A stretch of 32,000 nucleotides of DNA from Acaryochloris marina S15 (GCF_018336915.1 NZ_CP064923.1:5490001-5522000); one strand, 5' to 3'. Shown: positions 2,364 through 21,729, numbered from the stretch's first letter. A program made the numbers and translations. Notes: generated by a model not told the origin, from the sequence alone.

Positions 2364-2607
2364 TCCTGGTTAGCCAATCGTCAGACAGCCGTCGTAGGGG
2401 ACTTTATCAGAGCTTCCATAACGCGTTGAAGACTGGAATCAAGGCGTCTTAAAATCCTAAGCATTCACCAAAAAAGACGGTATAGTTGGGAAATTATCAA
2501 TATCTCAACTAAATGACTCTATATTCAATTCTATCTAGCCGTGGCTCATATTTTCTCTAGCTGATGAAATTAATAGCTATTATTCGGGAATGATAAGACT
2601 AGAGATG

Positions 2608-2623
2608 CGTGATCAAGATCACA
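2608..2623. promoter_or_regulatory. CRP/NtcA-family-like palindrome CGTGA-N6-TCACA
   Basis: cGTGATCAAGATCACA matches the TGTGA-N6-TCACA consensus at 9 of 10 half-site positions. It lies in an AT-rich intergenic region ~130 nt upstream of the small ORF at 2757. Confidence 0.3.
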
Positions 2624-2756
2624 GGTGCAAACGGCTATAGTCACTGCTAGCAAAGGCTGTAACTAACATGCTGGATAGCAAACCTGTACACCGGTTCCGC
2701 AGAGATTGTCACAGTTGGGTGTCGATCCTAAATCACACCGTAGGGAGAAACAAGCC

Positions 2757-2945
2757 ATGTCTGTGGTTCTAGCAGAACGATTTGCACATAATCCAGATTG
2801 GTCCAAAGTTCAGCCGCATAATTGCGATCGCGCCCAAGAATTGGTGACTTTAATCCAGGCTCAAATTCATCAGGACCGCGAAGCCCTGGCCGATGACTAC
2901 TACGGTTGGATTTACGAACTAAACAAGTTATTAAGTAGCCTGTAA
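2757..2945 (+). CDS. small hypothetical protein (62 aa from the ATG; the track ORF starts at TTG 2706)
   Basis: ATG 2757 is preceded by GGGAGA. The sequence MSVVLAERFAHNPDWSKVQPHNCDRAQELVTLIQ... has no recognisable motif. Confidence 0.35.
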   Translation: MSVVLAERFAHNPDWSKVQPHNCDRAQELVTLIQAQIHQDREALADDYYGWIYELNKLLSSL

Positions 2946-3022
2946 ACTCTCTTCTTGCTCTGCGAGTCACATCCAGGTCATATACGAGTAACGTTAGAGT
3001 GAGATGACATGTCAGTTAAGAT

Positions 3023-3361
3023 TTGTCAACAATCCAGATCACAACGACCCAAAAAACTTGGAAGCCCCAAACCTTCCAACCGATGACAGATGTTGCAGGT
3101 ATGGGATCTGCGATCGCAACCGACCAACACCACACCTATTTTTTGCACTACACGTCAGGGCTTTCCATTCTAGAACCTGGACAAGCAAACCCTACTTTCA
3201 TTGATCTGTCAGCGTTGAGCTATATGCGAGATCTCCTGATTGACCAGAAGGGCAATCTTTGGGTAGGAGGATGGAAGCAGTTAGTTCGACTACGCTGCCA
3301 AGGAAATCAGTGGAGTCAAGACCATTATCGCCTCACTCATTCAGTCTTAATCTCTCCTTAA
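3023..3361 (+). CDS. hypothetical protein, start uncertain (TTG 3023 or ATG 3083)
   Basis: Longest ORF in this stretch. The segment DQKGNLWVGGWKQLVRL resembles a single beta-propeller (Reg_prop-like) repeat. No other support. Confidence 0.3.
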   Translation: MSTIQITTTQKTWKPQTFQPMTDVAGMGSAIATDQHHTYFLHYTSGLSILEPGQANPTFIDLSALSYMRDLLIDQKGNLWVGGWKQLVRLRCQGNQWSQDHYRLTHSVLISP

Positions 3362-3510
3362 GTCAGTTAATTCATACCTGTTAAGACTTGTGCTTTCTAA
3401 GGTTCATTTTTTTGTATCCACCAATACAACAATCAACCGATAGACTTGATATTTCTTGTATACATACTCTATTCATCAAAAAACAATAATTCCTTAAAAA
3501 ATACTTGTTT

Positions 3511-3636
3511 CTAGGGTTCCGATTTGAGTTCCGTCCTTACTTAAATGCCTGGTCCAAGAGAAACAGCTAGCTGCTTTCATACCTGTTTTATACCGGTTGG
3601 CAGTGAGTGACACGGAGGGATAAAAGCCCGGGAGAA
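3511..3636 (+). promoter_or_regulatory. guanidine-I riboswitch aptamer (ykkC-yxkD motif, subtype 1)
   Basis: The three conserved ykkC blocks are present in the right order and spacing: CTAGGGTTCCG (3511-3521), GGTCCAAGAG (3551-3560) and ACACGGAGGGATAAAAGCCCGGGAGA (3610-3635). It sits in the 5' leader of the operon that starts at 3787. Confidence 0.9.
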
Positions 3637-3688
3637 TGAACATTAACGCCGTATCCGTTAATGGTTGTCTCCGCGGGTTTTGTGTTTT
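3626..3688 (+). terminator. riboswitch expression platform: intrinsic terminator overlapping the aptamer 3' strand
   Basis: GCCCGGGAGA (3626-3635) pairs with TCTCCGCGGG (3668-3677), with one bulged G. The inner stem is ATTAACG (3642-3648) / CGTTAAT (3656-3662). The U-rich tract TTTTGTGTTTT (3678-3688) follows. Confidence 0.7.
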
Positions 3689-3786
3689 AAATGGACAGGG
3701 CTCATCTTCCTCTAAAATGACGAAGGAGAAACAACATCAATAAAGAAATTAGCTTGACGAAGTAAAAAACACATTTTCTCGATATT

Positions 3787-4983
3787 ATGGCTGAAAATCC
3801 GACCTTTGGTCCTCCAAACTCTAATCCTGATTTTTCTTCCACCGAGGCCAATCGTGCCTTAGAAAAAGAAGCACAACTCCCCCTCACAGGCTGGCAACAA
3901 GAAGTCGATCGAGGATTAGAACTGGGCTTAGAAGCAGCAGCTAGCATCCGGGATCGCAGCATTCCTACCTTCTCACGAGGAGAACTGCCCCACTATGCAG
4001 GTATCAACACCTTTCTCAAAGCGCCTTACCTAGAAGATGTGCGTAAAGTCGGTGAGTACGATATTGCTGTTGTGGGCGTTCCCCATGACTCAGGCACCAC
4101 CTATCGTCCCGGCACACGCTTCGGTCCTCAGGGCATTCGTCGGATTTCAGCCCTCTATACCCCCTACAATTTCGAGATGGGCATCGATTTGCGGGAGCAG
4201 ATTACCCTCTGTGACGTGGGCGATATCTTCACTATCCCCGCCAACAACGAAAAATCCTTTGACCAAATCTCTAAAGGAATAGCCCATATCTTCAGTTCTG
4301 GGGCTTTTCCCATTATTTTAGGAGGTGATCACTCCATTGGATTCCCCACCGTTCGCGGCGTCTGCCGCCATTTGGGAGATAAGAAAGTCGGTATCATCCA
4401 CTTCGATCGCCATGTGGATACCCAAGAAACCGACCTAGATGAGCGCATGCATACCTGTCCTTGGTTTCATGCCACCAACATGGATAACGCTCCCGCTAAA
4501 AACCTGGTACAGCTAGGCATCGGTGGTTGGCAAGTGCCTCGCCAAGGGGTCAAGGTCTGCCGAGAGCGAGCCACTAATATCTTGACCGTCACTGACATTA
4601 CCGAAATGGGTCTAGATGCTGCCGTTGACTTCGCCCTAGAAAGAGCCTTGGACGGCACAGACTGTGTGTATATCAGTTTCGACATTGACTGTATTGATGC
4701 CGGATTTGTCCCCGGTACCGGCTGGCCAGAACCCGGTGGTCTCATGCCCCGAGAAGCGCTCTATATGCTCGGTAAAATCATTCGACAAGCGCCCGTCTGT
4801 GGCCTGGAAATTGTCGAAGTTTCGCCCCCCTATGACGTCAGCGATATGACCTCTCTGATGGCCACGCGGGTGATCTGCGATACCATGGCCCATCTGGTTC
4901 TCTCTGGACAACTGCCCCGTCAGCAAACACCCGACTATATTCACCCTGAAGCCAATATGGCAGTGGGTTCTGAGTGGGTTTAG
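3787..4983 (+). CDS. gdmH: arginase/agmatinase-family ureohydrolase; probable Ni-dependent guanidine hydrolase (GdmH/Sll1077-like). Pipelines would usually call it agmatinase SpeB.
   Basis: 398 aa. All arginase-fold metal-ligand motifs are present: ILGGDHSIGFP, IIHFDRHVDTQ and YISFDIDCIDAGFVPGTGWPEPGG. It is the first gene after a guanidine-I riboswitch and is followed directly by HypA/HypB-like genes. Confidence 0.85.
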   Translation: MAENPTFGPPNSNPDFSSTEANRALEKEAQLPLTGWQQEVDRGLELGLEAAASIRDRSIPTFSRGELPHYAGINTFLKAPYLEDVRKVGEYDIAVVGVPHDSGTTYRPGTRFGPQGIRRISALYTPYNFEMGIDLREQITLCDVGDIFTIPANNEKSFDQISKGIAHIFSSGAFPIILGGDHSIGFPTVRGVCRHLGDKKVGIIHFDRHVDTQETDLDERMHTCPWFHATNMDNAPAKNLVQLGIGGWQVPRQGVKVCRERATNILTVTDITEMGLDAAVDFALERALDGTDCVYISFDIDCIDAGFVPGTGWPEPGGLMPREALYMLGKIIRQAPVCGLEIVEVSPPYDVSDMTSLMATRVICDTMAHLVLSGQLPRQQTPDYIHPEANMAVGSEWV

Positions 4984-4986
4984 GCC

Positions 4987-5367
4987 ATGCATGAAACAGA
5001 CATGACCAAGGCCCTGATCATGACGGTCAAAGATTGGTACGACTCCCAACCCGAAGATCCAAAAATCACCAAAATTCATTTGGTTGTCGGTCGGTTTACC
5101 TGTGTTGAACCCGTCAGCTTGCAGTTCGCCTATGAAGTTCAAACCCGTGACACTTTCTTAGCCGGGACAGAACTGGTGATTCGAGAAACGCCTTTAATCG
5201 CCTTTTGTCACCCCTGCCAAAAAGAATATTCCCCAGCCATCGGCTTGCAGTATTCCTGTCCTGACTGTGGAACGCCGATGGAAGACATCCGGTCCGGTCG
5301 CGAACTCAAAATTGACCATATCGAATATTGTTCTGATTCAGCCCAAGCTTATGCACCAAACTGTTGA
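4987..5367 (+). CDS. hypA: HypA-like nickel metallochaperone (GhaA-type accessory protein)
   Basis: 126 aa. Has the N-terminal MHE nickel-binding motif and two CxxC pairs (CHPCQ, CPDCG) forming the zinc site. The ATG is 3 nt after the upstream stop codon. Confidence 0.85.
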
Positions 5368-6049
5368 CGCCGCCCTAGGCATTAACCTCTTACATGCCAA
5401 TCAAGAAGGGGCCAATCACAACCAAGCACATTTTGATGAATGGGGGGTGACCTGTTTCAACATTATGAGCAGCCCTGGTGCAGGAAAAACGGTGCTGTTG
5501 GAGAAAACCCTAGCGGCTCTCAGCCCAGAACTCAAACTGGCCGTCATCGAAGGCGACATGACCACCGAATTGGATGCCGATCGATTACGGGCTTACGATG
5601 TCCCCGTGGTGGCCATTAACACCGGGCGATCCTGTCACCTTGACGCCAAGATGGTCGCGGGTGGCATCCACCAATTGGAGCATTGCACTAATCCTAGTGA
5701 ACTGGATTTAGTGCTGGTAGAGAATGTCGGGAACCTCGTATGTCCGGCAGAGTTTGAAGTAGGAGAGCATGCCAAAGTGGCCCTACTCAGCGTGACAGAG
5801 GGGGAAGATAAGCCGCTGAAATATCCCGTGATGTTTCAAGCAGCCGATTGTTTATTGGTGACCAAGATAGATTTAGTTCCCTATCTCAATATTGACATTG
5901 AGCAAATCAGCCAGAATGTCCGTCAGCTCAATCCCCATGCCACGATTATTCCGGTATCTGCACAAACAGGAGCAGGGCTTGCTGAATGGTATGAATGGGT
6001 GCGTCAACAGGTCGCCCAGCCGAGTCGGACTGCAGTCGGTCGTCATTAG
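5351..6049 (+). CDS. hypB: HypB-like nickel-dependent GTPase (GhaB-type accessory protein)
   Basis: P-loop SSPGAGKT, metal/switch motifs GRSCHLDA and [12 protein letters not shown], and specificity motif TKIDL. I place the start at ATG 5351 ([10 protein letters not shown]...), which overlaps hypA by 17 nt. The track start at 5267 would add 28 residues read out of frame across hypA. Confidence 0.85.
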
Positions 6050-6076: not shown

Positions 6077-7105
6077 ATGAAGCGAAGAAATTTTCTATCC
6101 TTATGTTTGGTATTTTTCTGCAGTTTGCTGCTGACCGTCAGCTGTAGCTCCTCACCCGAGACGACAACCGACTCTTCTGTCGGCTCAGGGGAGCCAGTTG
6201 TGATTGGTTACAGTAACTGGGCGGGTTGGTGGCCTTGGGCCATTGCCGAGCAAGAAGGGCTATTTGAAAAAAATAAGGCCAATATCAAACTCAAATGGTT
6301 TGATAATTACACCACTTCAATGGAAGCCCTGGCAGCGGGTCAATTAGACGGCAATTGCCAAACCCTCAACGATACGATTTCCTTTGCCGGCAGTGCCACC
6401 AAGGGAGAAGTCGCGGTCCTAGTCAATGACAACTCTGCTGGTAATGACAAGATTATCGTTACGGCCGATATTAATAGTATTCAAGACTTGAAAGGTAAGA
6501 AAGTTGCCGTTGAAGAAGGAGTAGTGGACGACTTTTTGTTGACCTTAGCCTTGGAAGAAAACGGCATGAAGCGAGACGATGTGGAGATCGTGGGCTTGGA
6601 AACGGGTAAGGCCGTGACTGCTTTTGTGGCAGGTAAAGTGGATGCAGTCGGGGCATTTCCCCCGTTCTGGGCAACAGCGTTAAAGCGGGAAGGCAGTAAA
6701 GAGCTGATCTCGTCCAAAGAGTTTCCGGGTGCCATTCCAGACTTGCTCGTGGTGACCCAAGATTTAGTGGATAATCGCCCCGATCAAGTGCAGGCCCTGG
6801 TAGATACTTGGTTTGATATCTTAGCCTTCATAGATAAAAATCCCCAAAAGGCTGATGAAATTATGGCGAAGCGGGCCGGGGTCTCTCTGGAAGAGATGAA
6901 GCAATTCAAAGAAGGAACGCGCTTCTTCTCCCTAGAAGATAATCTGGAAGCATTTTCGGATGGTGAAGACATGAAGCATATGCCCTTTGCTGCCAAACGG
7001 ATGGCTAAGTTTATGGTGGATGTCGAATTCATTAAAGAAGCACCGGATTTAACCCAAGTGCTGGATGACCAGTTTGTTAAGGCCTATCAAGCCAAGCAAG
7101 CATAG
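6077..7105 (+). CDS. ABC transporter substrate-binding protein, NitT/TauT (NMT1/SsuA-like) family, probable lipoprotein
   Basis: 342 aa. Signal peptide ends in LLLTVSC-SS (lipobox-like Cys). The overall pattern (IGYSNWAGWWPW..., KGKKVAV..G) is typical of nitrate/sulfonate/taurine-type binding proteins. Confidence 0.8.
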   Translation: MKRRNFLSLCLVFFCSLLLTVSCSSSPETTTDSSVGSGEPVVIGYSNWAGWWPWAIAEQEGLFEKNKANIKLKWFDNYTTSMEALAAGQLDGNCQTLNDTISFAGSATKGEVAVLVNDNSAGNDKIIVTADINSIQDLKGKKVAVEEGVVDDFLLTLALEENGMKRDDVEIVGLETGKAVTAFVAGKVDAVGAFPPFWATALKREGSKELISSKEFPGAIPDLLVVTQDLVDNRPDQVQALVDTWFDILAFIDKNPQKADEIMAKRAGVSLEEMKQFKEGTRFFSLEDNLEAFSDGEDMKHMPFAAKRMAKFMVDVEFIKEAPDLTQVLDDQFVKAYQAKQA

Positions 7106-7173: not shown

Positions 7174-8019
7174 ATGACCTCCAACTCGTCAGTTCCCCCA
7201 CCCCAACCGAACCATCAGTCTGGTGGATTAAAACCCACTATTTTTTGGCGTATTGCTGAGGACATTCCAGGGAATCTCAAGTGGGCCTTAATGGTGACTT
7301 CCATCGTTCTTCCCTTCGGACTTTGGTGGGGAATCGCTAGCACTGGAGTCGTTAATTCCGACTTCTTGCCATCTCCTACCCAAGTGGGTCAAGCCTTACG
7401 CGATCTCTACTCTGATGGCTTGCTCGTCCATGATACGTTGATGAGCTGCTTTAGGGTTGGGGTAGGTTTTCTACTCGCTGCAATTGTTTCTGCGCCTGTT
7501 GGCATAGCGATGGGGACATTTACCAGTATTCGGTCCTTATTGGAACCGATTATGGGCATTGTTCGTTATATGCCAGCGCCCGCCTTTACGCCCCTGTTAC
7601 TGATCTATTTAGGGGTAGATGAACGACCCAAAATCGCCCTCATTTTTATCGGTACGGTGTTTTTCAACATCTTGATGGTGATGGATGCCGTCAAGTTTAT
7701 TCCCAAGGAATTGCTGGAAACAACTTATACCCTAGGGGGAAGACGTCACCAAGTGCTCTTCCAGGTGATTACTCCCTATGTGATTCCCAATATTCTGGAT
7801 GCCTTTCGTGTCAATATGGCAGCCTCTTGGAATTTAGTCGTGGTTGCTGAATTAATTGCTGCAGAAGAAGGCTTAGGGAAACGCATTGCCATAGCTGAAC
7901 AGTTTTTCAGGACTGATACTATTTTTGCCTGCCTCATTGTGTTGGGACTGATTGGGTTTGGTCTAGATTTATTATTCCGCTGGCTACAACGTGCTGTCTC
8001 TCCCTGGGCAATCGACTAA
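7174..8019 (+). CDS. ABC transporter permease, NitT/TauT family
   Basis: 281 aa and multi-pass hydrophobic. The EAA-like loop region (AEEGLGKRIAIAEQFF) is typical of BPD_transp_1 permeases. Confidence 0.85.
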   Translation: MTSNSSVPPPQPNHQSGGLKPTIFWRIAEDIPGNLKWALMVTSIVLPFGLWWGIASTGVVNSDFLPSPTQVGQALRDLYSDGLLVHDTLMSCFRVGVGFLLAAIVSAPVGIAMGTFTSIRSLLEPIMGIVRYMPAPAFTPLLLIYLGVDERPKIALIFIGTVFFNILMVMDAVKFIPKELLETTYTLGGRRHQVLFQVITPYVIPNILDAFRVNMAASWNLVVVAELIAAEEGLGKRIAIAEQFFRTDTIFACLIVLGLIGFGLDLLFRWLQRAVSPWAID

Positions 8020-8028
8020 CTCATCACT

Positions 8029-8805
8029 ATGCACTTAGAAGTTTCCCATCTGTATAAGCATTTCTCGACTCGCCAGGGGAAACTGCTCGTTCTCAAAGAT
8101 ATTAATCTGCACGTGGAGACGGGAGAGTTTGTCTGTGCTGTAGGGGCATCAGGATCTGGCAAAACCACACTTCTACGTATGATAGCGGGGCTAGACGCCT
8201 CTACCTCAGGCAAAATCATGGTCGATGGTCAGCCCGTGATTGGTCCGGGTGCCGATCGCGGCATGGTGTTTCAAAGTTACACCCTCTATCCCTGGTTGAC
8301 AGTTGCCAAAAATGTGGGATTTGGCTTAAAACTGCAGGGGGTTGCTAAGCCCCTGCGCGCTAAGCGGGTGGCTGAATATCTAGATGTGGTGGGATTGACC
8401 CAGTTTGCCGATGCTTATCCCAGAGAGTTGTCAGGGGGGATGAAGCAGCGAGTTGCCATTGCCCGAGCATTGGCCTCACAACCCAAAGTATTACTGATGG
8501 ATGAGCCGTTCGGAGCATTGGATGTGCAAACGAAAGAAACCATGCAGCAGTTTTTGCTGAATTTATGGCGACGAACCGGCACCAGCATCTTAATGATTAC
8601 CCATGACGTAGACGAAGCTATTTTCCTGTCACAGCGCATTTACGTGCTCACGGCTCGCCCTGGTTCGGTCCAGCGAGAGATCTCGATTAACCTACCGACG
8701 GAACGGACTTACGCCGTCAAACGTCAGCCCTTATTTCAAGACTATCGAGATGAAATCATGGATCTGTTGCGGGAAACCCCAGAACTCCATCCAGTGATAG
8801 AGTAA
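8029..8805 (+). CDS. ABC transporter ATP-binding protein, NitT/TauT family
   Basis: Walker A GASGSGKTT, signature LSGGMKQR, Walker B LLMDEPF, H-loop ITHD. The ATG is 9 nt after the permease stop. Confidence 0.9.
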   Translation: MHLEVSHLYKHFSTRQGKLLVLKDINLHVETGEFVCAVGASGSGKTTLLRMIAGLDASTSGKIMVDGQPVIGPGADRGMVFQSYTLYPWLTVAKNVGFGLKLQGVAKPLRAKRVAEYLDVVGLTQFADAYPRELSGGMKQRVAIARALASQPKVLLMDEPFGALDVQTKETMQQFLLNLWRRTGTSILMITHDVDEAIFLSQRIYVLTARPGSVQREISINLPTERTYAVKRQPLFQDYRDEIMDLLRETPELHPVIE

Positions 8806-14581: not shown

Positions 14582-15706
14582 TTACACCACTGTTAAATGC
14601 ATAAAGGCCGCAATACAGCGCCCACTTTCGGGTACAAAGCAGAGGATCCGTTGTCCAGGCTGCAAAGACTGTTGCTGAACCAGCTCCTCTAGCATGATAA
14701 AGATGGAGGCCGTCCCGGTATTGCCATAGCGTTCTAGGTTATTGAACCATTTTTCTTCCGCAATCATGGCTCCTGTGCGAAGCAGCAATCGCTTCATCTC
14801 TTCGCCTAGGGAGTGGGAAGAATAATGGGGTAAAAAATAATCGATGGCATTGGGATCCAGATCGTATTTCTCTAGCAGCTCCAGATAGTAGCCAACCCAA
14901 ACCGGAAACATGGCGTAGAGAATATCAAAGTCTTGCTTAAGGGCAATGGCACCCGCTTCATAGGCCGCCTGGGGAGATTCATATAACCCCCATCCCAGAT
15001 CGTCCGTATTGCTTTTAGCCCCGGCATACATACAGGGTGGGAACCGGTCGGCAAAGGACTTAAACTGAATCCAATCAATCCGCAAGGACACTCCATCGGG
15101 CTTAGGATTGGGCTCTAAGACTACAGCTCCTGCCCCATCGGAGAGGGTCCATCGCAAGAACTCGATTTGTGGATCGGGCCTGGCATCTTGATCGTAAAAA
15201 GGCTGATAGACCTTAGGGCGAAACCAGCGGCTCGCAAATTCACTCCCGCTCGCGACTGCCAGCTGAGACTCGCTCACTTTGACATTGAGCCAGGCATTTT
15301 TAACCGCCATCAGACTGCTGGCACAAACACTCTGAAATGAAAAAATTGCTAGCGGTGGAATACCTAGCTCACCATGGACTGCACTCGCAAACCCTGGCAC
15401 CAGATAATCCCCTTGGGTGGTACTCGTTGCTAGCAGATCCACCTGTTCGGGCTGGCAACGAGCTTGTTTAAGAGCATCATGAATGGCATTCGCCGCCATC
15501 CCTGCGTTGGTATATCGGTAGCCACCTGCTGTATCTAGGGCGTAGAAGCGCTGCTTAATCCCATTTTTGCGCAAGATAGCGGATCCTAGGGTTGAGCTAC
15601 GCTTACTAATACTGCCGATGTACGCCGCCATATCCGCGTTGGCAACGGGCTCTCCTGGCAAAAATTTGCCGACTCCAGTGATGTAAACCTCTTGGCAAGG
15701 AGACAT
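14582..15706 (-). CDS. beta-ketoacyl-ACP synthase III (FabH)-like condensing enzyme
   Basis: Thiolase-fold KAS III pattern with a candidate Cys-His-Asn triad: FQSVCASS, FLPHYSSH, YGNTGTASI. I prefer ATG 15706 (MSPCQEVYITG...) over the track TTG at 15712. Confidence 0.85.
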   Translation of the reverse strand: MSPCQEVYITGVGKFLPGEPVANADMAAYIGSISKRSSTLGSAILRKNGIKQRFYALDTAGGYRYTNAGMAANAIHDALKQARCQPEQVDLLATSTTQGDYLVPGFASAVHGELGIPPLAIFSFQSVCASSLMAVKNAWLNVKVSESQLAVASGSEFASRWFRPKVYQPFYDQDARPDPQIEFLRWTLSDGAGAVVLEPNPKPDGVSLRIDWIQFKSFADRFPPCMYAGAKSNTDDLGWGLYESPQAAYEAGAIALKQDFDILYAMFPVWVGYYLELLEKYDLDPNAIDYFLPHYSSHSLGEEMKRLLLRTGAMIAEEKWFNNLERYGNTGTASIFIMLEELVQQQSLQPGQRILCFVPESGRCIAAFMHLTVV

Positions 15707-15714
15707 GGGCAACG

Positions 15715-15741: not shown

Positions 15742-16266
15742 CGGTTCATCGTCGATGCGTTCGCAGCATCTACAGCTGAATCATAGCGCTTCTCTGGTTG
15801 ACTATAAGCCAAAGAATTGAATACATTGGCTCTAGACCTTGCATGTGCCTGAGAGCAGTAAACTAAAGATATTAAGACATTGCCTCTACCAGACTTTAGG
15901 CAAGTCATTGGTACTACTCGCTACATTTATGACCTCATGGGCTGTTGTATTGTCAAAAGATGGTGAAATACAGTCAATCGGCTAATTTCTCTAGCAAACG
16001 GTCAAATCCATACTTGTTAACAGATTTACCGATTAAAGCCTATAAGTTTTAGATCAAAATGGGCACACTACAGTCATCGGTGTTGATGGAGATTTGATAT
16101 CCAGGCTATTTGCAGCAATTGTCTGTCTTAGTCGTGTCCCAGCATACAGTGAATAGCAAGTTTAGCTTGCGATCTCAGCGGTCGGGGGAGCCTGCATTGA
16201 GTTGCAGTAGGCCATCGCTTTTTTCAGCAATAGAGTCACGTCCTCTTTCGAGATGTAAGTTTTGCA

Positions 16267-17181
16267 GTGGTGTTTTTTCAAAGATTATTTCGTCAGCCTC
16301 AGCCACCTAACCATGCCACACCTTCTGAAAACCTGGAAGCGAGTTTAGCTGAGTTTGATCAGGCTATCGCCCATGGAAAAGATAATAACGAAGTATGGTT
16401 TGGGCGAGGTTGCGTCCAAGTTGAACTAAAACGGTATCAAGAAGCGATTCGTAGCTTCGATCGGGCCTTGGCCCATCGCCCTAATCATTTAGATAGTTGG
16501 CACAATCGGTCTTTAGCCTTTTGCCAATTGGGTCTATACGAAGAAGCGGTGAGTAGCTATGAGCAGGCTCTTCATTTGGGCAGCGCCCCCTCCCAAGATT
16601 GGTATTTCTATGGCACATTGCTCGCCCAGCTCGATCGCTATGAAGAAGCCATCAACAGCTATGAACAAGCCCTAAAGAAGGATCCCGATCGGGCACTGAT
16701 TTGGTACGACCGTGGCATTGCCCTGTCTTGGTTAGGACAATACGAAGATGCGATCGCAAGTTACGATCAAGCCCTCAATCTAGACTCAAGCCTTCATCAA
16801 GCTTGGTTCCGACGCGGCTTAGCCTTCAATCAATGTCAAAACTATGCCCAAGCCTTGAAATCTTTTGATAAGGCCTTATCGATTGATGAAAAGGAGGCCG
16901 AAGTATGGGCTGCTAAGGGGTTAGCCCTGCTCCAACTTCAGCAATATGAAGAAGCCATTACCACCCATGAAAAAGCGATCAAACTGAATGCGAAGGATGA
17001 TCAAGTTTGGTACAACAAAGCTTGCTGCCACGCCCATCATCAACAGCTAGATCAAGCAATTTCTAGCCTTGAACAAGCCATGAACCTCAATCCAGAGGCC
17101 ATTCGTGAATTGGCTAGCAATGATCCCGACTTACAAGTCTTGCATCAACAACCCACCTTTCAAAAGCTGATTTCGATTTAA
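16267..17181 (+). CDS. TPR repeat protein
   Basis: 304 aa with ~8 consecutive 34-residue TPR units (W..RG.AL..L..Y.EAI.S[YF]D.AL...P). The GTG start is uncertain. Confidence 0.8.
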   Translation: MVFFQRLFRQPQPPNHATPSENLEASLAEFDQAIAHGKDNNEVWFGRGCVQVELKRYQEAIRSFDRALAHRPNHLDSWHNRSLAFCQLGLYEEAVSSYEQALHLGSAPSQDWYFYGTLLAQLDRYEEAINSYEQALKKDPDRALIWYDRGIALSWLGQYEDAIASYDQALNLDSSLHQAWFRRGLAFNQCQNYAQALKSFDKALSIDEKEAEVWAAKGLALLQLQQYEEAITTHEKAIKLNAKDDQVWYNKACCHAHHQQLDQAISSLEQAMNLNPEAIRELASNDPDLQVLHQQPTFQKLISI

Positions 17182-18857: not shown

Positions 18858-20051
18858 TTAGTCCGGTAAGTCATATTGACTGACAATGCGCTTGGCGTAT
18901 TCAGGCACATGGGCATCTACCTTATCAGGATAGTTACGCTTCACATACAGGTAGTTACGGGTAAAGTGCGAATCAATCGAGAACCGCGCATATTCTAAAC
19001 CTCGGGGACCAATCTTGTCGATCACCACCCCCATCAGTTTCGCCGCCCACATGGGCAAGGTCACCCCCTTATCATAGGCAGGGATGCTGTTTTGCACCGC
19101 CGCATGGCGATCGCCTTCAGAAATTACAGGCTGGGTTTCCAGCTGATCCATCACCAGATCCAGCATTTCCTGGCCCGTCTCGTTGCGCACCACAATCCAC
19201 TGCCAGCCGTAGGGAGAACCCATATAACCCACCACAAGATCCGCCAGGGAATTCGTGTAGTCAAAACAGCTCATGCAGGAAGGGGCAAAAATGTCTTTGA
19301 GTTTATTGGTCTTCAAACCAAAAAAGGGCACCATCTCAATCGACCCATCTTCATGCTTGAAGTGGATACGGAAGTCCTGCATAAATTCATAATGGACAAC
19401 CGTTTCTGGGGAACGACTCGTGGTGTCTAAGAAGGTCTGCAACCCTGCTCGATTCACGTTGTCTACGCAGGGCGTCCCCAGCACATAGAGTTTCTCAAGC
19501 CCTAAGCTATCCTGAACCGACCGTAAAGCTTGGGTTTGGCACCCTACTCCAATCACACAGAGGCGCTTCATGCCCGACTGTTCAATCTGCTCTAGCACCG
19601 AGAGATTGGGAGATAGCGTGGGCTTATTCACCCGAGCCGCCAACACTTCTTCTGGGGTACGGGCAATAATCGGCTTGGGTTGAAATCGATCTTCATCCGT
19701 ATTTTGGATACAGACAACGCCCTCAACTTTGCCCTGCTTCAGCAGTTCCATGCCGATGGTGCTGACAATCCCCGTCCATTGCGCCCCCGGAATGGGATCG
19801 ACCTTGCGGGCCGTCATCATTTGGTTGCTGACCCCGAAGTACCAATCATCTTCGTTATCCAAGTCACGGCTGCGGCCATGGGCTTTTTCTTCCAGCTCAG
19901 CCACCTGCTGATTTAAGAAGGCACAGGCTTCCTTAACGTAGTGAATGTAGTAGGTATCGCAAAGACCACATTCACTACAGAGTTCTTTAGCCGGTCGGCG
20001 ACTCGTGGATTTGAGGGCTTTGGCTTTTTTATGGGGTTGTACCGCAGTCAT
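18858..20051 (-). CDS. coenzyme F420 hydrogenase/dehydrogenase beta-subunit family Fe-S flavoprotein (HCAR / BciB-like chlorophyll-intermediate reductase)
   Basis: 397 aa. The N-terminal Cys cluster CSECGLCDTYYIHYVKEAC and the overall FrhB_FdhB N+C architecture resemble plant 7-hydroxymethyl chlorophyll a reductase and cyanobacterial ferredoxin-type divinyl reductase. Confidence 0.8.
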   Translation of the reverse strand: MTAVQPHKKAKALKSTSRRPAKELCSECGLCDTYYIHYVKEACAFLNQQVAELEEKAHGRSRDLDNEDDWYFGVSNQMMTARKVDPIPGAQWTGIVSTIGMELLKQGKVEGVVCIQNTDEDRFQPKPIIARTPEEVLAARVNKPTLSPNLSVLEQIEQSGMKRLCVIGVGCQTQALRSVQDSLGLEKLYVLGTPCVDNVNRAGLQTFLDTTSRSPETVVHYEFMQDFRIHFKHEDGSIEMVPFFGLKTNKLKDIFAPSCMSCFDYTNSLADLVVGYMGSPYGWQWIVVRNETGQEMLDLVMDQLETQPVISEGDRHAAVQNSIPAYDKGVTLPMWAAKLMGVVIDKIGPRGLEYARFSIDSHFTRNYLYVKRNYPDKVDAHVPEYAKRIVSQYDLPD

Positions 20052-20190
20052 AGTTAAATTAGGGTTTCAGTACTCCGAAGCAAGCGCAAAGTACCGAATT
20101 GAATGGTTATCTCGCATTCCGATTGTAAACAGTTTCGGGACCGCACCCCAAGTCCCCCCAGTTTTTCCTTTGATGACTGATTTTTAGAGG

Positions 20191-21729
20191 TCAATCATTA
20201 TGGGCATGATCAAATTCATAGACATAAAACATGCGGCTAAAGCGCTGGAGTAAATAGCCCCCTGTCGCTAACACCACACTGCAAAGCGCTAACTCCCAAA
20301 ACTCAGGCGGGGGAGTCATTAAGAATAAAGAAGTATCAGAATGAGTGATGGCGTATAGGGCTTGCGATCGCGCATCCAGCATCACCCCCAATCCAAAACA
20401 AACCACTGCGCTAATCAACATCACGATTTTCAGCTGTTGAATCCGTTTCAAGGCTTGGCGGCAAACTTGGCAATCTTTAGTGTGGGTGTGCCAAACATCA
20501 AAGAGCTGTTCTTTATCTCGCTGAGGGGGAGGGAGCTGGGGGTCACATTGCCAGGGAATCCCTCCGCCTGCTCGGGTTTTGATCCACTGCCGCAGGGCAA
20601 TCACCATTTTGTCTTGGGGATTAGGGGTATAGACCGTCTCTAGCCAATTTCCCTGCTCCTGATGCCCAATTCGTTTTTCCTGATAGTGGAGAAACACTAA
20701 ATCTTGATGGAGGAATAGGGGGGCCAATACATGGCCTAACCATTTCGGCATCGGCCAAGCAAAAAAGCCCAACCCAGGGGGCGCTTTCCCATCCTTATCT
20801 TTAATCAAGACTTGGCAGCCAATGTGGCGACACCAACCGGGACGAGTGGGACTGGCATAGAGTGCCAAAATCATTTGCCCCTCTCTCGCAAAAGTGGTTT
20901 CAATCCGCATATGACAAGGAGGCTGAAAATTGTGGACTGCCTTTCTTAAAATCGTATTGGAGACGGGTGTGATGTTAAAGGCAAAGCCTTCTTGAGTCGA
21001 GACTTCTCGCACCGCACTCATATCGTAATAATTGGCATCCCGATAGCGATTACCCATAATGCCGTGATGGGAGACAGGGACATGGGCCGGGTCCGCAATA
21101 TTTTCCATAAAAAAGTCCCAGCCATAGGGCAAGTCTCGCACATACCAAAACAGCTTAATGGCCCGATCGGGCAACTCTTCTAGCTCCGGGATAATCCGAG
21201 GAGAACGCTCCTGGCTGAGGGACTGGGAGGCCTCACTATTATCTGGCCACACCCAAATTAAACCCTGCTGAACTTGGGTCGGATAGGCGATGGCACACGA
21301 TCGCGGATTGGCTCGATGCTGTTTAGCCGTCTCTAAATCCAGACTTTGAGGAATATCTAAGCAGTGGCCCTCACCATCAAATCGCCAGGCATGATACGCA
21401 CACATCAAAGTGCCATCTACTTCGATCCGTCCTTCGGATAGCGGTGCAAGGCGATGAGGACAGCGATCTTCAAAACAATGCCATTCTCCCTGCTGATCAT
21501 GCCAAATCACCAGATCTTTTCCCAATAGCTGAATGGCATGAGGGCTTTTCGGATCCAAAAACTCAACCACTGCCACTGGATACCATTGCTGTGTCCATTG
21601 AAATTGTTCAGGTGTAGCGGTTTCAGCTTCTGCAACGGAGGGGGCGGTCTCTACCTGCTGAGATGAATCGTGGGTGGGATCAAGGGACAAGCGGTTTTGA
21701 GTCGTCACTGTCTTAACAATTGCGCTCAC
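20191..21729 (-). CDS. Rieske [2Fe-2S] non-heme iron oxygenase, pheophorbide a oxygenase (PAO/Tic55/LLS1)-like
   Basis: Rieske motif CPHRLAPLSEG ... CAYHAWRF, mononuclear iron region DPAHVPVSHHG, C-terminal CxxC (KDCQVCRQA) and two terminal TM helices, as in PAO-family proteins. GTG start. Confidence 0.85.
   Translation of the reverse strand: MSAIVKTVTTQNRLSLDPTHDSSQQVETAPSVAEAETATPEQFQWTQQWYPVAVVEFLDPKSPHAIQLLGKDLVIWHDQQGEWHCFEDRCPHRLAPLSEGRIEVDGTLMCAYHAWRFDGEGHCLDIPQSLDLETAKQHRANPRSCAIAYPTQVQQGLIWVWPDNSEASQSLSQERSPRIIPELEELPDRAIKLFWYVRDLPYGWDFFMENIADPAHVPVSHHGIMGNRYRDANYYDMSAVREVSTQEGFAFNITPVSNTILRKAVHNFQPPCHMRIETTFAREGQMILALYASPTRPGWCRHIGCQVLIKDKDGKAPPGLGFFAWPMPKWLGHVLAPLFLHQDLVFLHYQEKRIGHQEQGNWLETVYTPNPQDKMVIALRQWIKTRAGGGIPWQCDPQLPPPQRDKEQLFDVWHTHTKDCQVCRQALKRIQQLKIVMLISAVVCFGLGVMLDARSQALYAITHSDTSLFLMTPPPEFWELALCSVVLATGGYLLQRFSRMFYVYEFDHAHND

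Follow-up and report, generated by a model that had tools for sequence, protein, structure and literature searches.

A probable guanidine-dependent anti-termination switch in the leader of the Acaryochloris marina gdmH operon

The leader of the gdmH-ghaA-ghaB(-gimABC) operon of Acaryochloris marina S15 very probably carries a guanidine-dependent anti-termination element, that is, a transcriptional ON switch, as judged from sequence and predicted folding. An earlier note on this DNA had proposed such a switch, and the proposal is supported by an Rfam aptamer, a hairpin that shares a strand with it, the recurrence of this arrangement in 66 of 69 leaders, covariation and the gdmH operon itself. 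The aptamer match, the competing hairpin, conservation with covariation, and gene content were computed here for a stretch of 32,000 nt (the window) and for related loci; coordinates count from the first nucleotide of the window, and features lie on the plus strand unless otherwise stated. Guanidine-I riboswitches are usually transcriptional ON switches that prevent terminator formation (PMC12186494), so that the description of the element as the classic transcriptional ykkC architecture holds. The family, its ligand, the association with cyanobacterial gdmH, the ON behaviour and the terminator-type platform are all published already. As a standard member of a curated family, with a score above the cut-off applied by annotation pipelines, a textbook platform and a gene already reported for cyanobacteria, the single instance matters little. 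The increment is comparative: a terminator that shares GCCCGGGAG with the aptamer is nearly universal and covaries in 69 leaders, which supports a transcriptional mode. For ligand-dependent termination, there is no published report on any cyanobacterial guanidine-I example.

Guanidine-I (ykkC subtype 1) is the sole Rfam family detected across the 32-kb window. The match to RF00442 extends from 3500 to 3636 over the full length of the model (1-107 of 107), with 71.4 bits against a gathering score of 63 and an E value of 5e-11; a scan of 3350-3850 against Rfam at E values up to 1 returned nothing besides this family. The pairs mapped from the Rfam alignment are canonical throughout and constitute P1 (3506-3511/3560-3565), P1a/P1b (3514-3527/3541-3555), P2 (3566-3573/3601-3608, with a 27-nt extension) and P3 (C3611-G3631 together with GGG 3617-3619/CCC 3627-3629). 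Since P1 opens at about 3506, the aptamer start at 3511 given earlier has to be moved upstream. The conserved blocks CUAGGGUUCCG, GGUCCGAGAG and ACACGGnGGGAnAAAAGCCCGGGAGA are present at 3511-3521, 3551-3560 and 3610-3635, respectively. The sole deviation from the consensus is a G to A change at 3556 (CCAAGAG), which affects a conserved G of GGUCCGAGAG and is common to 19 of the 69 cyanobacterial gdmH leaders; according to the Rfam alignment and these leaders, the remaining conserved aptamer nucleotides are intact.

The signature of subtype 1 is found as well. The consensus conserved A positions, whichever of them corresponds to A46, are all A in the window, and the 5' tail AAUACU and the 3' tail GAGAA are non-complementary, leaving no P0 helix. 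The association with genes of guanidine metabolism is likewise seen, with a GdmH orthologue directly downstream, followed by HypA-like, HypB-like and ABC importer genes. By analogy with its Synechocystis orthologue, the RNA of the window presumably binds guanidine. In the nascent RNA from 3500 to 3620, the minimum-energy structure is the consensus P1/P1a/P1b/P2 scaffold. In the isolated aptamer, the nearest-neighbour minimum-energy fold (-35.5) differs from the consensus fold (-23.5), and correct folding therefore depends on the order of co-transcriptional events and on tertiary contacts.

The strand that closes the aptamer also opens a terminator. The switching strand GCCCGGGAGA (3626-3635), composed of the 3' strand of P3 and the conserved tail, doubles as the 5' arm of a 53-nt hairpin (3626-3678) with a free energy of -24.4 kcal/mol, or -27.9 kcal/mol with its A/U extension. 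Its pairing with the 3' arm UCUCCGCGGG (3668-3677), proposed in the earlier note together with its coordinates, is borne out by the sequence and by the ViennaRNA fold. The outer stem (3626-3635/3668-3678) consists of nine Watson-Crick pairs, with C3627-G3677, C3628-G3676, C3629-G3675 and G3630-C3674 in the basal part, a bulged G3673, and G3631-C3672, G3632-C3671, A3633-U3670, G3634-C3669 and A3635-U3668 above the bulge; a wobble pair, G3626-U3678, and as many as three A-U pairs can lengthen it at the base. An internal loop separates it from the inner stem, AUUAACG/CGUUAAU at 3642-3648/3656-3662 as predicted, to which ViennaRNA adds C3641-G3663, giving 8 bp (3641-3648/3656-3663). The predicted U-rich tract, UUUUGUGUUUU (3678-3688), can be read directly from the sequence; with 9 U in 11 bases, broken by two G, it adjoins the stem and starts at the last stem position. 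Termination at this tract, near 3685-3690, is likely. When the 69 nt from 3622 to 3690 are folded in ViennaRNA, exactly the terminator hairpin is obtained at -27.9 kcal/mol, and none of 200 dinucleotide shuffles equals this value (mean -14.9 +/- 2.8, z -4.6).

The two folds are mutually exclusive, as had been stated: P3 joins positions 3627-3631 to 3611 and 3617-3619, whereas the terminator pairs them with 3672-3677. One part of the claim has to be narrowed: within the block described as shared, CCCGG (3627-3631) is indeed paired in the aptamer, whereas GAGA (3632-3635) is its conserved unpaired tail. A simple consensus terminator scan leaves the hairpin unlisted on the plus strand and reports only the inner stem, with a poor tail, on the minus strand. 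This omission is due to the internal loops and the bulge, which violate the contiguous-stem rule, and is no evidence against the hairpin. The terminator is also nearly symmetric, AAAAGCCCGGG...CCGCGGGUUUU, owing to the conserved A-rich loop of P3 in front of the stem (window 3622-3682).

Folding with and without aptamer constraints, as the earlier note had suggested, gives -57.3 kcal/mol for 3500-3695 when unconstrained, with the terminator included, and -36.6 kcal/mol with the Rfam pairs enforced, a cost of ~20 kcal/mol under an energy model that excludes tertiary contacts and ligand. In the ensemble of the same segment, terminator pairs have probabilities of 0.96-1.0 and P3 pairs of ~0. As the terminator dominates the equilibrium ensemble, the default state is OFF. 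P3 by itself contributes ~ -3 kcal/mol, and when it holds 3626-3631 only a residual hairpin (3632-3671) of -10.6 kcal/mol is left, against -24.4 kcal/mol for the full one. At a nascent length of 3688, the minimum-energy fold retains the P1-P2 scaffold and gains the terminator. Thus, the contest is local and opposes P3 to the base of the terminator. A further pairing in the minimum-energy fold of the window, between the freed GGAGGG (3614-3619) and the P1b loop UCCGUCCUU, was dismissed, as it is unconserved in the three related leaders L001-L003 and the P1b loop bases vary among population variants.

Collectively, these features suggest a switch under kinetic control. Transcription would start near 3462 at an NtcA-dependent promoter, and P1, P1a, P1b and P2 would fold first. 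Without guanidine, the weak P3 would lose CCCGG (3627-3631) to the newly made CCGCGGG (3671-3677), the completed 53-nt hairpin would abut UUUUGUGUUUU, and RNA polymerase would terminate near 3685-3690. Once guanidine occupied the pocket of P3 and this helix docked on P1a, the CCCGG strand would be held and only the 3632-3671 hairpin would be possible; as this residual hairpin ends 6 nt before the U-tract, it could not terminate, and polymerase would read through into gdmH. The bound state would have to be trapped kinetically during the transcription of ~40 nt.

The aptamer-terminator arrangement is widespread. Among 80 cyanobacterial gdmH loci, 69 carry the aptamer 3' block, and in all 69 the downstream minimum-energy fold is a hairpin of 40-59 nt with GCCCGGGAG as its 5' arm. 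Under a strict test, which calls for at least 6 of the 8 bases of CCCGGGAG to be paired in a hairpin no longer than 62 nt with a free energy of -20 kcal/mol or below, 66 of the 69 leaders pass, against 12 of 1380 controls with dinucleotide-shuffled downstream sequence (0.9%). At least 5 U occur within 9 nt after the stem in 62 of the 69 leaders, and in 59 of the 66 that pass the strict test. In seven Nostocales leaders (L040, L047, L048, L054, L062, L064 and L078, at about 2880-2940), GGGCUAUAGUUUUG or GGGCUGUAAUUUUG comes after the hairpin, and the U run lies ~5 nt away from the stem; this displacement may reflect weaker termination or a mechanistically different platform. At 12 of the 80 loci (L019, L023, L024, L026, L031, L033, L034, L038, L046, L056, L059 and L074), with examples in Nostoc linckia NIES-25, Nostoc minutum NIES-26 and several Elainellaceae, the stored upstream flank holds no recognisable guanidine-I 3' block, and an Rfam scan of five of them confirmed the absence. 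Either gdmH is not always riboswitch-controlled or it sits deeper in the operon at these loci.

The hairpin is conserved as a structure. MAFFT and RNAalifold, applied to 68 platforms with inner stems of differing length, recovered just 7 outer pairs, and this alignment was replaced by a covariance-model alignment (R1) with 67 distinct plus-strand rows, fitted to the model structure and hence biased towards pairing. Minus-strand R1 matches, which arise from the near-palindromic AAAAGCCCGGG...CCCGGGCUUUU, were filtered out. The reverse strand scores with R1 at many loci, which gives the terminator a bidirectional form, and one extra minus-strand match, in L063 at 2266-2329, is unrelated. The 5' arm is nearly invariant over the 69 loci, because the aptamer constrains it, and the outer helix is 95% canonical in the 67 rows, its 3' arm showing hardly any variation other than C/U exchanges opposite G, which keep the pairing. 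The middle and inner helices, free of the aptamer constraint, covary strongly: in the same 67 rows, canonical pairs make up 82% of the middle helix (59% after column shuffling) and 79% of the inner helix (47.5%), and for neither helix did any of 500 shuffles attain the real figure. Double-change cells of the inner helix number 128, against 41 in shuffles, and control registers with partners slid by 1-2 columns are 34-51% canonical.

The same pattern is seen at closer range. In the four Acaryochloridaceae leaders, the outer stem and the bulged G are retained throughout, and the inner stem changes from AUUAACG/CGUUAAU in the window to UUACCG/CGGUAA in L001, CAUUAAUG/CGUUAAUG with G-U pairs in L002 and GCUAACGC/GCGUCAGC with one C·C mismatch in L003. 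The exact GdmH protein is encoded on 21 contigs from metagenomes or the SRA, and one of these contigs has the same sequence as the window throughout 3400-3800. Population variants differ from the window by 7-15 SNPs in this interval, with zero in the terminator stems. Three SNPs fall in mapped aptamer stems and keep or repair pairs, namely A3522G, A3565G (A-U to G-U) and G3605U, the last of which repairs the P2 mismatch A3569·G3605. This preservation of pairing indicates purifying selection on the fold.

Upstream of the aptamer, a putative NtcA box, GTATCCACCAATAC, matches the pattern GTA-N8-TAC exactly at 3414-3427, ~90 nt ahead of P1. Its GTAT...ATAC core is invariant in all four Acaryochloridaceae leaders, with diverging flanks, and carries zero SNPs in the population variants. 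The pattern occurs twice in the window against 2.95 occurrences expected, a count that is by itself not significant, so the site is proposed from its position and conservation. The -10 element at the expected distance is poor (TATTTC/GATATT, ~3448-3455). Transcription probably starts near 3462, from an NtcA-dependent promoter. In Synechocystis, gdmH is NtcA-regulated from a site centred at about -42 (PMC12704784), and the similarity suggests a comparable dual control by nitrogen status and guanidine. The leader looks like a compact two-input design that joins a nitrogen-status promoter, defined by its NtcA box, with a guanidine-gated terminator; a two-input leader is relevant to users of inducible cyanobacterial tools. 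The other exact GTA-N8-TAC (15911-15924) is intergenic and may be due to chance. It lies between a divergent pair of genes, on one side a KAS III/thiolase-like gene (14582-15712, minus strand), the first of a cluster that includes DUF6999 and an iron-containing redox enzyme, and on the other a gene for a TPR protein (16267-17181, plus strand). Similarity to A. marina drops quickly upstream of the NtcA box, and the ~1 kb preceding it (2364-3413) contains only short ORFs without a family match; one of 112 aa (3023-3361) has no NCBIfam or Pfam match.

Between terminator and gdmH, a spacer of the 5'-UTR extends from 3689 to 3786. The ATG at 3787, conserved in the four Acaryochloridaceae leaders, lies 99 nt past 3688, in keeping with the distance of about 100 nt given earlier; in many other cyanobacterial leaders the spacer is much shorter. 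Two blocks, 3701-3719 and 3754-3769, are nearly invariant in the four Acaryochloridaceae (CTCATCTTCCTCTAAAATG and TGACGAAGTAAAAAA). A second structured RNA in the spacer was rejected, given no Rfam match at E values up to 1 and a fold z of +0.30. A spacer promoter was rejected as well: on visual inspection, TTGACG (3754-3759) lacks an acceptable -10 element at a distance of 16-18 nt, and none is listed by the scan. Also discarded was a leader peptide encoded by an upstream ORF of 8 codons at 3717-3743 (ATG ACG AAG GAG AAA CAA CAT CAA TAA). L003 has ATA in place of the ATG shared by the window, L001 and L002, and both the reading frame and its length vary from one relative to another; the ORF is therefore probably not a conserved leader peptide.

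The genes downstream fit a guanidine-responsive leader. The first, gdmH (3787-4983), encodes by homology a Ni-dependent guanidine hydrolase of 398 aa with the arginase/agmatinase fold. Its product matches PDB 7esr/7oi1 ('Probable agmatinase 2') over residues 14-397 with an E value of 1.6e-240, a chain which we take to be Synechocystis Sll1077/SpeB2, the Ni-dependent guanidine hydrolase GdmH, and is 97% identical to the homologue of Acaryochloris marina MBIC11017. Next come ghaA (4987-5367; HypA-like, TIGR00100, 112 bits) and ghaB (~5351-6049; HypB-like, TIGR00073, 310 bits), the products of which have an accessory role in Ni insertion (PMC12704784). The ghaB ORF is listed from a GTG at 5267, with an overlap of 100 nt with ghaA; gene callers on identical contigs start it at ~5351, with an overlap of 17 nt. 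Of the two starts, the one at ~5351 is the more plausible, and it suggests that ghaA and ghaB are translationally coupled. Three gimABC-like genes follow, for a substrate-binding protein (6077-7105, SsuA-family match), a permease (7174-8019, TauC/SaoP-like match) and an ATPase (8029-8805, SaoA/TauB-like match). In Synechocystis, sll1080-1082 encode a guanidine importer within a gdmH-ghaA-ghaB-gimABC arrangement (PMC12704784); family membership and gene order make the Acaryochloris importer genes putative orthologues. Elsewhere in the window, the minus strand (18858-21729) carries adjacent genes for an FrhB/FdhB-like protein of 397 aa, which resembles 7-hydroxymethyl-chlorophyll reductase, and for a Rieske/PaO-family oxygenase of 512 aa. 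Acaryochloris is a producer of chlorophyll d, and this pair may be relevant to the way in which chlorophyll is modified or turned over.

Other readings of the leader have been weighed. Guanidine-II and guanidine-III elements exert control of the translation or mRNA-stability type. That the present leader responds to guanidine but acts mainly at these levels, through access to the ribosome-binding site or entry of RNase E, with the hairpin as a by-product, is improbable. The Synechocystis reporter, with GFP as its only output, does not separate transcription from translation (PMC12704784), and the hairpin of some leaders (L071, L049 and L080) stands only ~20-30 nt before the start codon, as such control would allow; in the window, however, the hairpin is 99 nt away from the start codon, and the intervening spacer is without predicted stable structure (z +0.30) and, in the Acaryochloridaceae alignment, without conserved complementarity to the switching strand. 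Moreover, the U-rich tail that follows the stem in 62 of 69 leaders is not required by translational control. Still less probable is a constitutive, ligand-blind attenuator or terminator left behind by a decayed aptamer, with induction via NtcA only. A score just 8 bits over the gathering threshold, lowered by the long P1b and P2 insertions, the change at 3556 and a thermodynamic lead of the terminator of ~20 kcal/mol could be read in this sense. But A3556 is a common variant in cyanobacteria, the conserved positions of the aptamer are otherwise unchanged, the three aptamer-stem SNPs in the population preserve pairing, and a constitutive terminator would have no need of the strict overlap with the aptamer found in 66 leaders.

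The least probable reading is a ykkC subtype 2 variant with another ligand (ppGpp, PRPP or nucleoside diphosphates). The overall fold is shared, and ykkC models can match subtype 2 RNAs, but subtypes 2a and 2b (ppGpp, PRPP) require a pyrimidine at A46 and a P0 helix formed by conserved 5' and 3' extensions (PMC6031431). When these features are set against the Rfam alignment, the window keeps every conserved A, its AAUACU and GAGAA tails are unable to pair, and the genes that follow belong to a guanidine hydrolase operon; an assignment to subtype 2 was rejected. The anti-termination switch remains the preferred reading. It could be accompanied, although this is as improbable as control of translation or stability, by a terminated leader RNA acting in trans or by a second, Acaryochloridaceae-specific regulatory layer in the spacer (CUCAUCUUCCUCUAAAAUG, UGACGAAGUAAAAAA), both ideas being derived from sequence conservation in four genomes only. 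If so, an NtcA-driven terminated RNA of ~185-230 nt (~3462-3688) would be made continuously under nitrogen limitation without guanidine and, once accumulated, could either work as a small RNA or buffer guanidine.

The closest known system is the gdmH (sll1077) riboswitch of Synechocystis sp. PCC 6803, which binds guanidine with a Kd of ~58 uM by in-line probing and confers a 4-5x reporter induction in vivo that is abolished by G16C (Itzenhaeuser et al., PNAS 2025, PMC12704784); its transcriptional mode is inferred by analogy only in that work. Compared by description, both elements share the Rfam family, gdmH, the ghaA/ghaB and ABC importer genes and the ON behaviour and, probably, dual control by NtcA and guanidine. 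Unlike its Synechocystis counterpart, the Acaryochloris element has longer P1b and P2 insertions, a 99-nt clade-conserved spacer and a terminator stem with a bulged G, and its importer genes have no perfect NtcA box in front of them. With ykkC subtypes 2a and 2b it has in common the overall fold, the S-turn pocket in P3 and the use of terminator-based ON switches; the pyrimidine at the A46 equivalent, the P0 helix and the contexts of amino-acid or purine biosynthesis belong to these subtypes only and are all lacking in the window. In the guanidine-I riboswitches of Firmicutes and Proteobacteria, represented by Desulfotomaculum ruminis, Dickeya dadantii, Sulfobacillus acidophilus and Nitrosomonas europaea, one finds the same aptamer consensus, a terminator 5' arm that overlaps the 3' side of P3 and a read-through favoured by guanidine; for D. 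ruminis, 10.1101/2025.03.14.643060 cites single-round termination assays. These switches mostly govern urea/guanidine carboxylases or efflux pumps and thus detoxification, whereas that of the window would instead govern a Ni-dependent guanidine hydrolase and an importer, and thereby nitrogen assimilation, from a probable nitrogen-regulated promoter.
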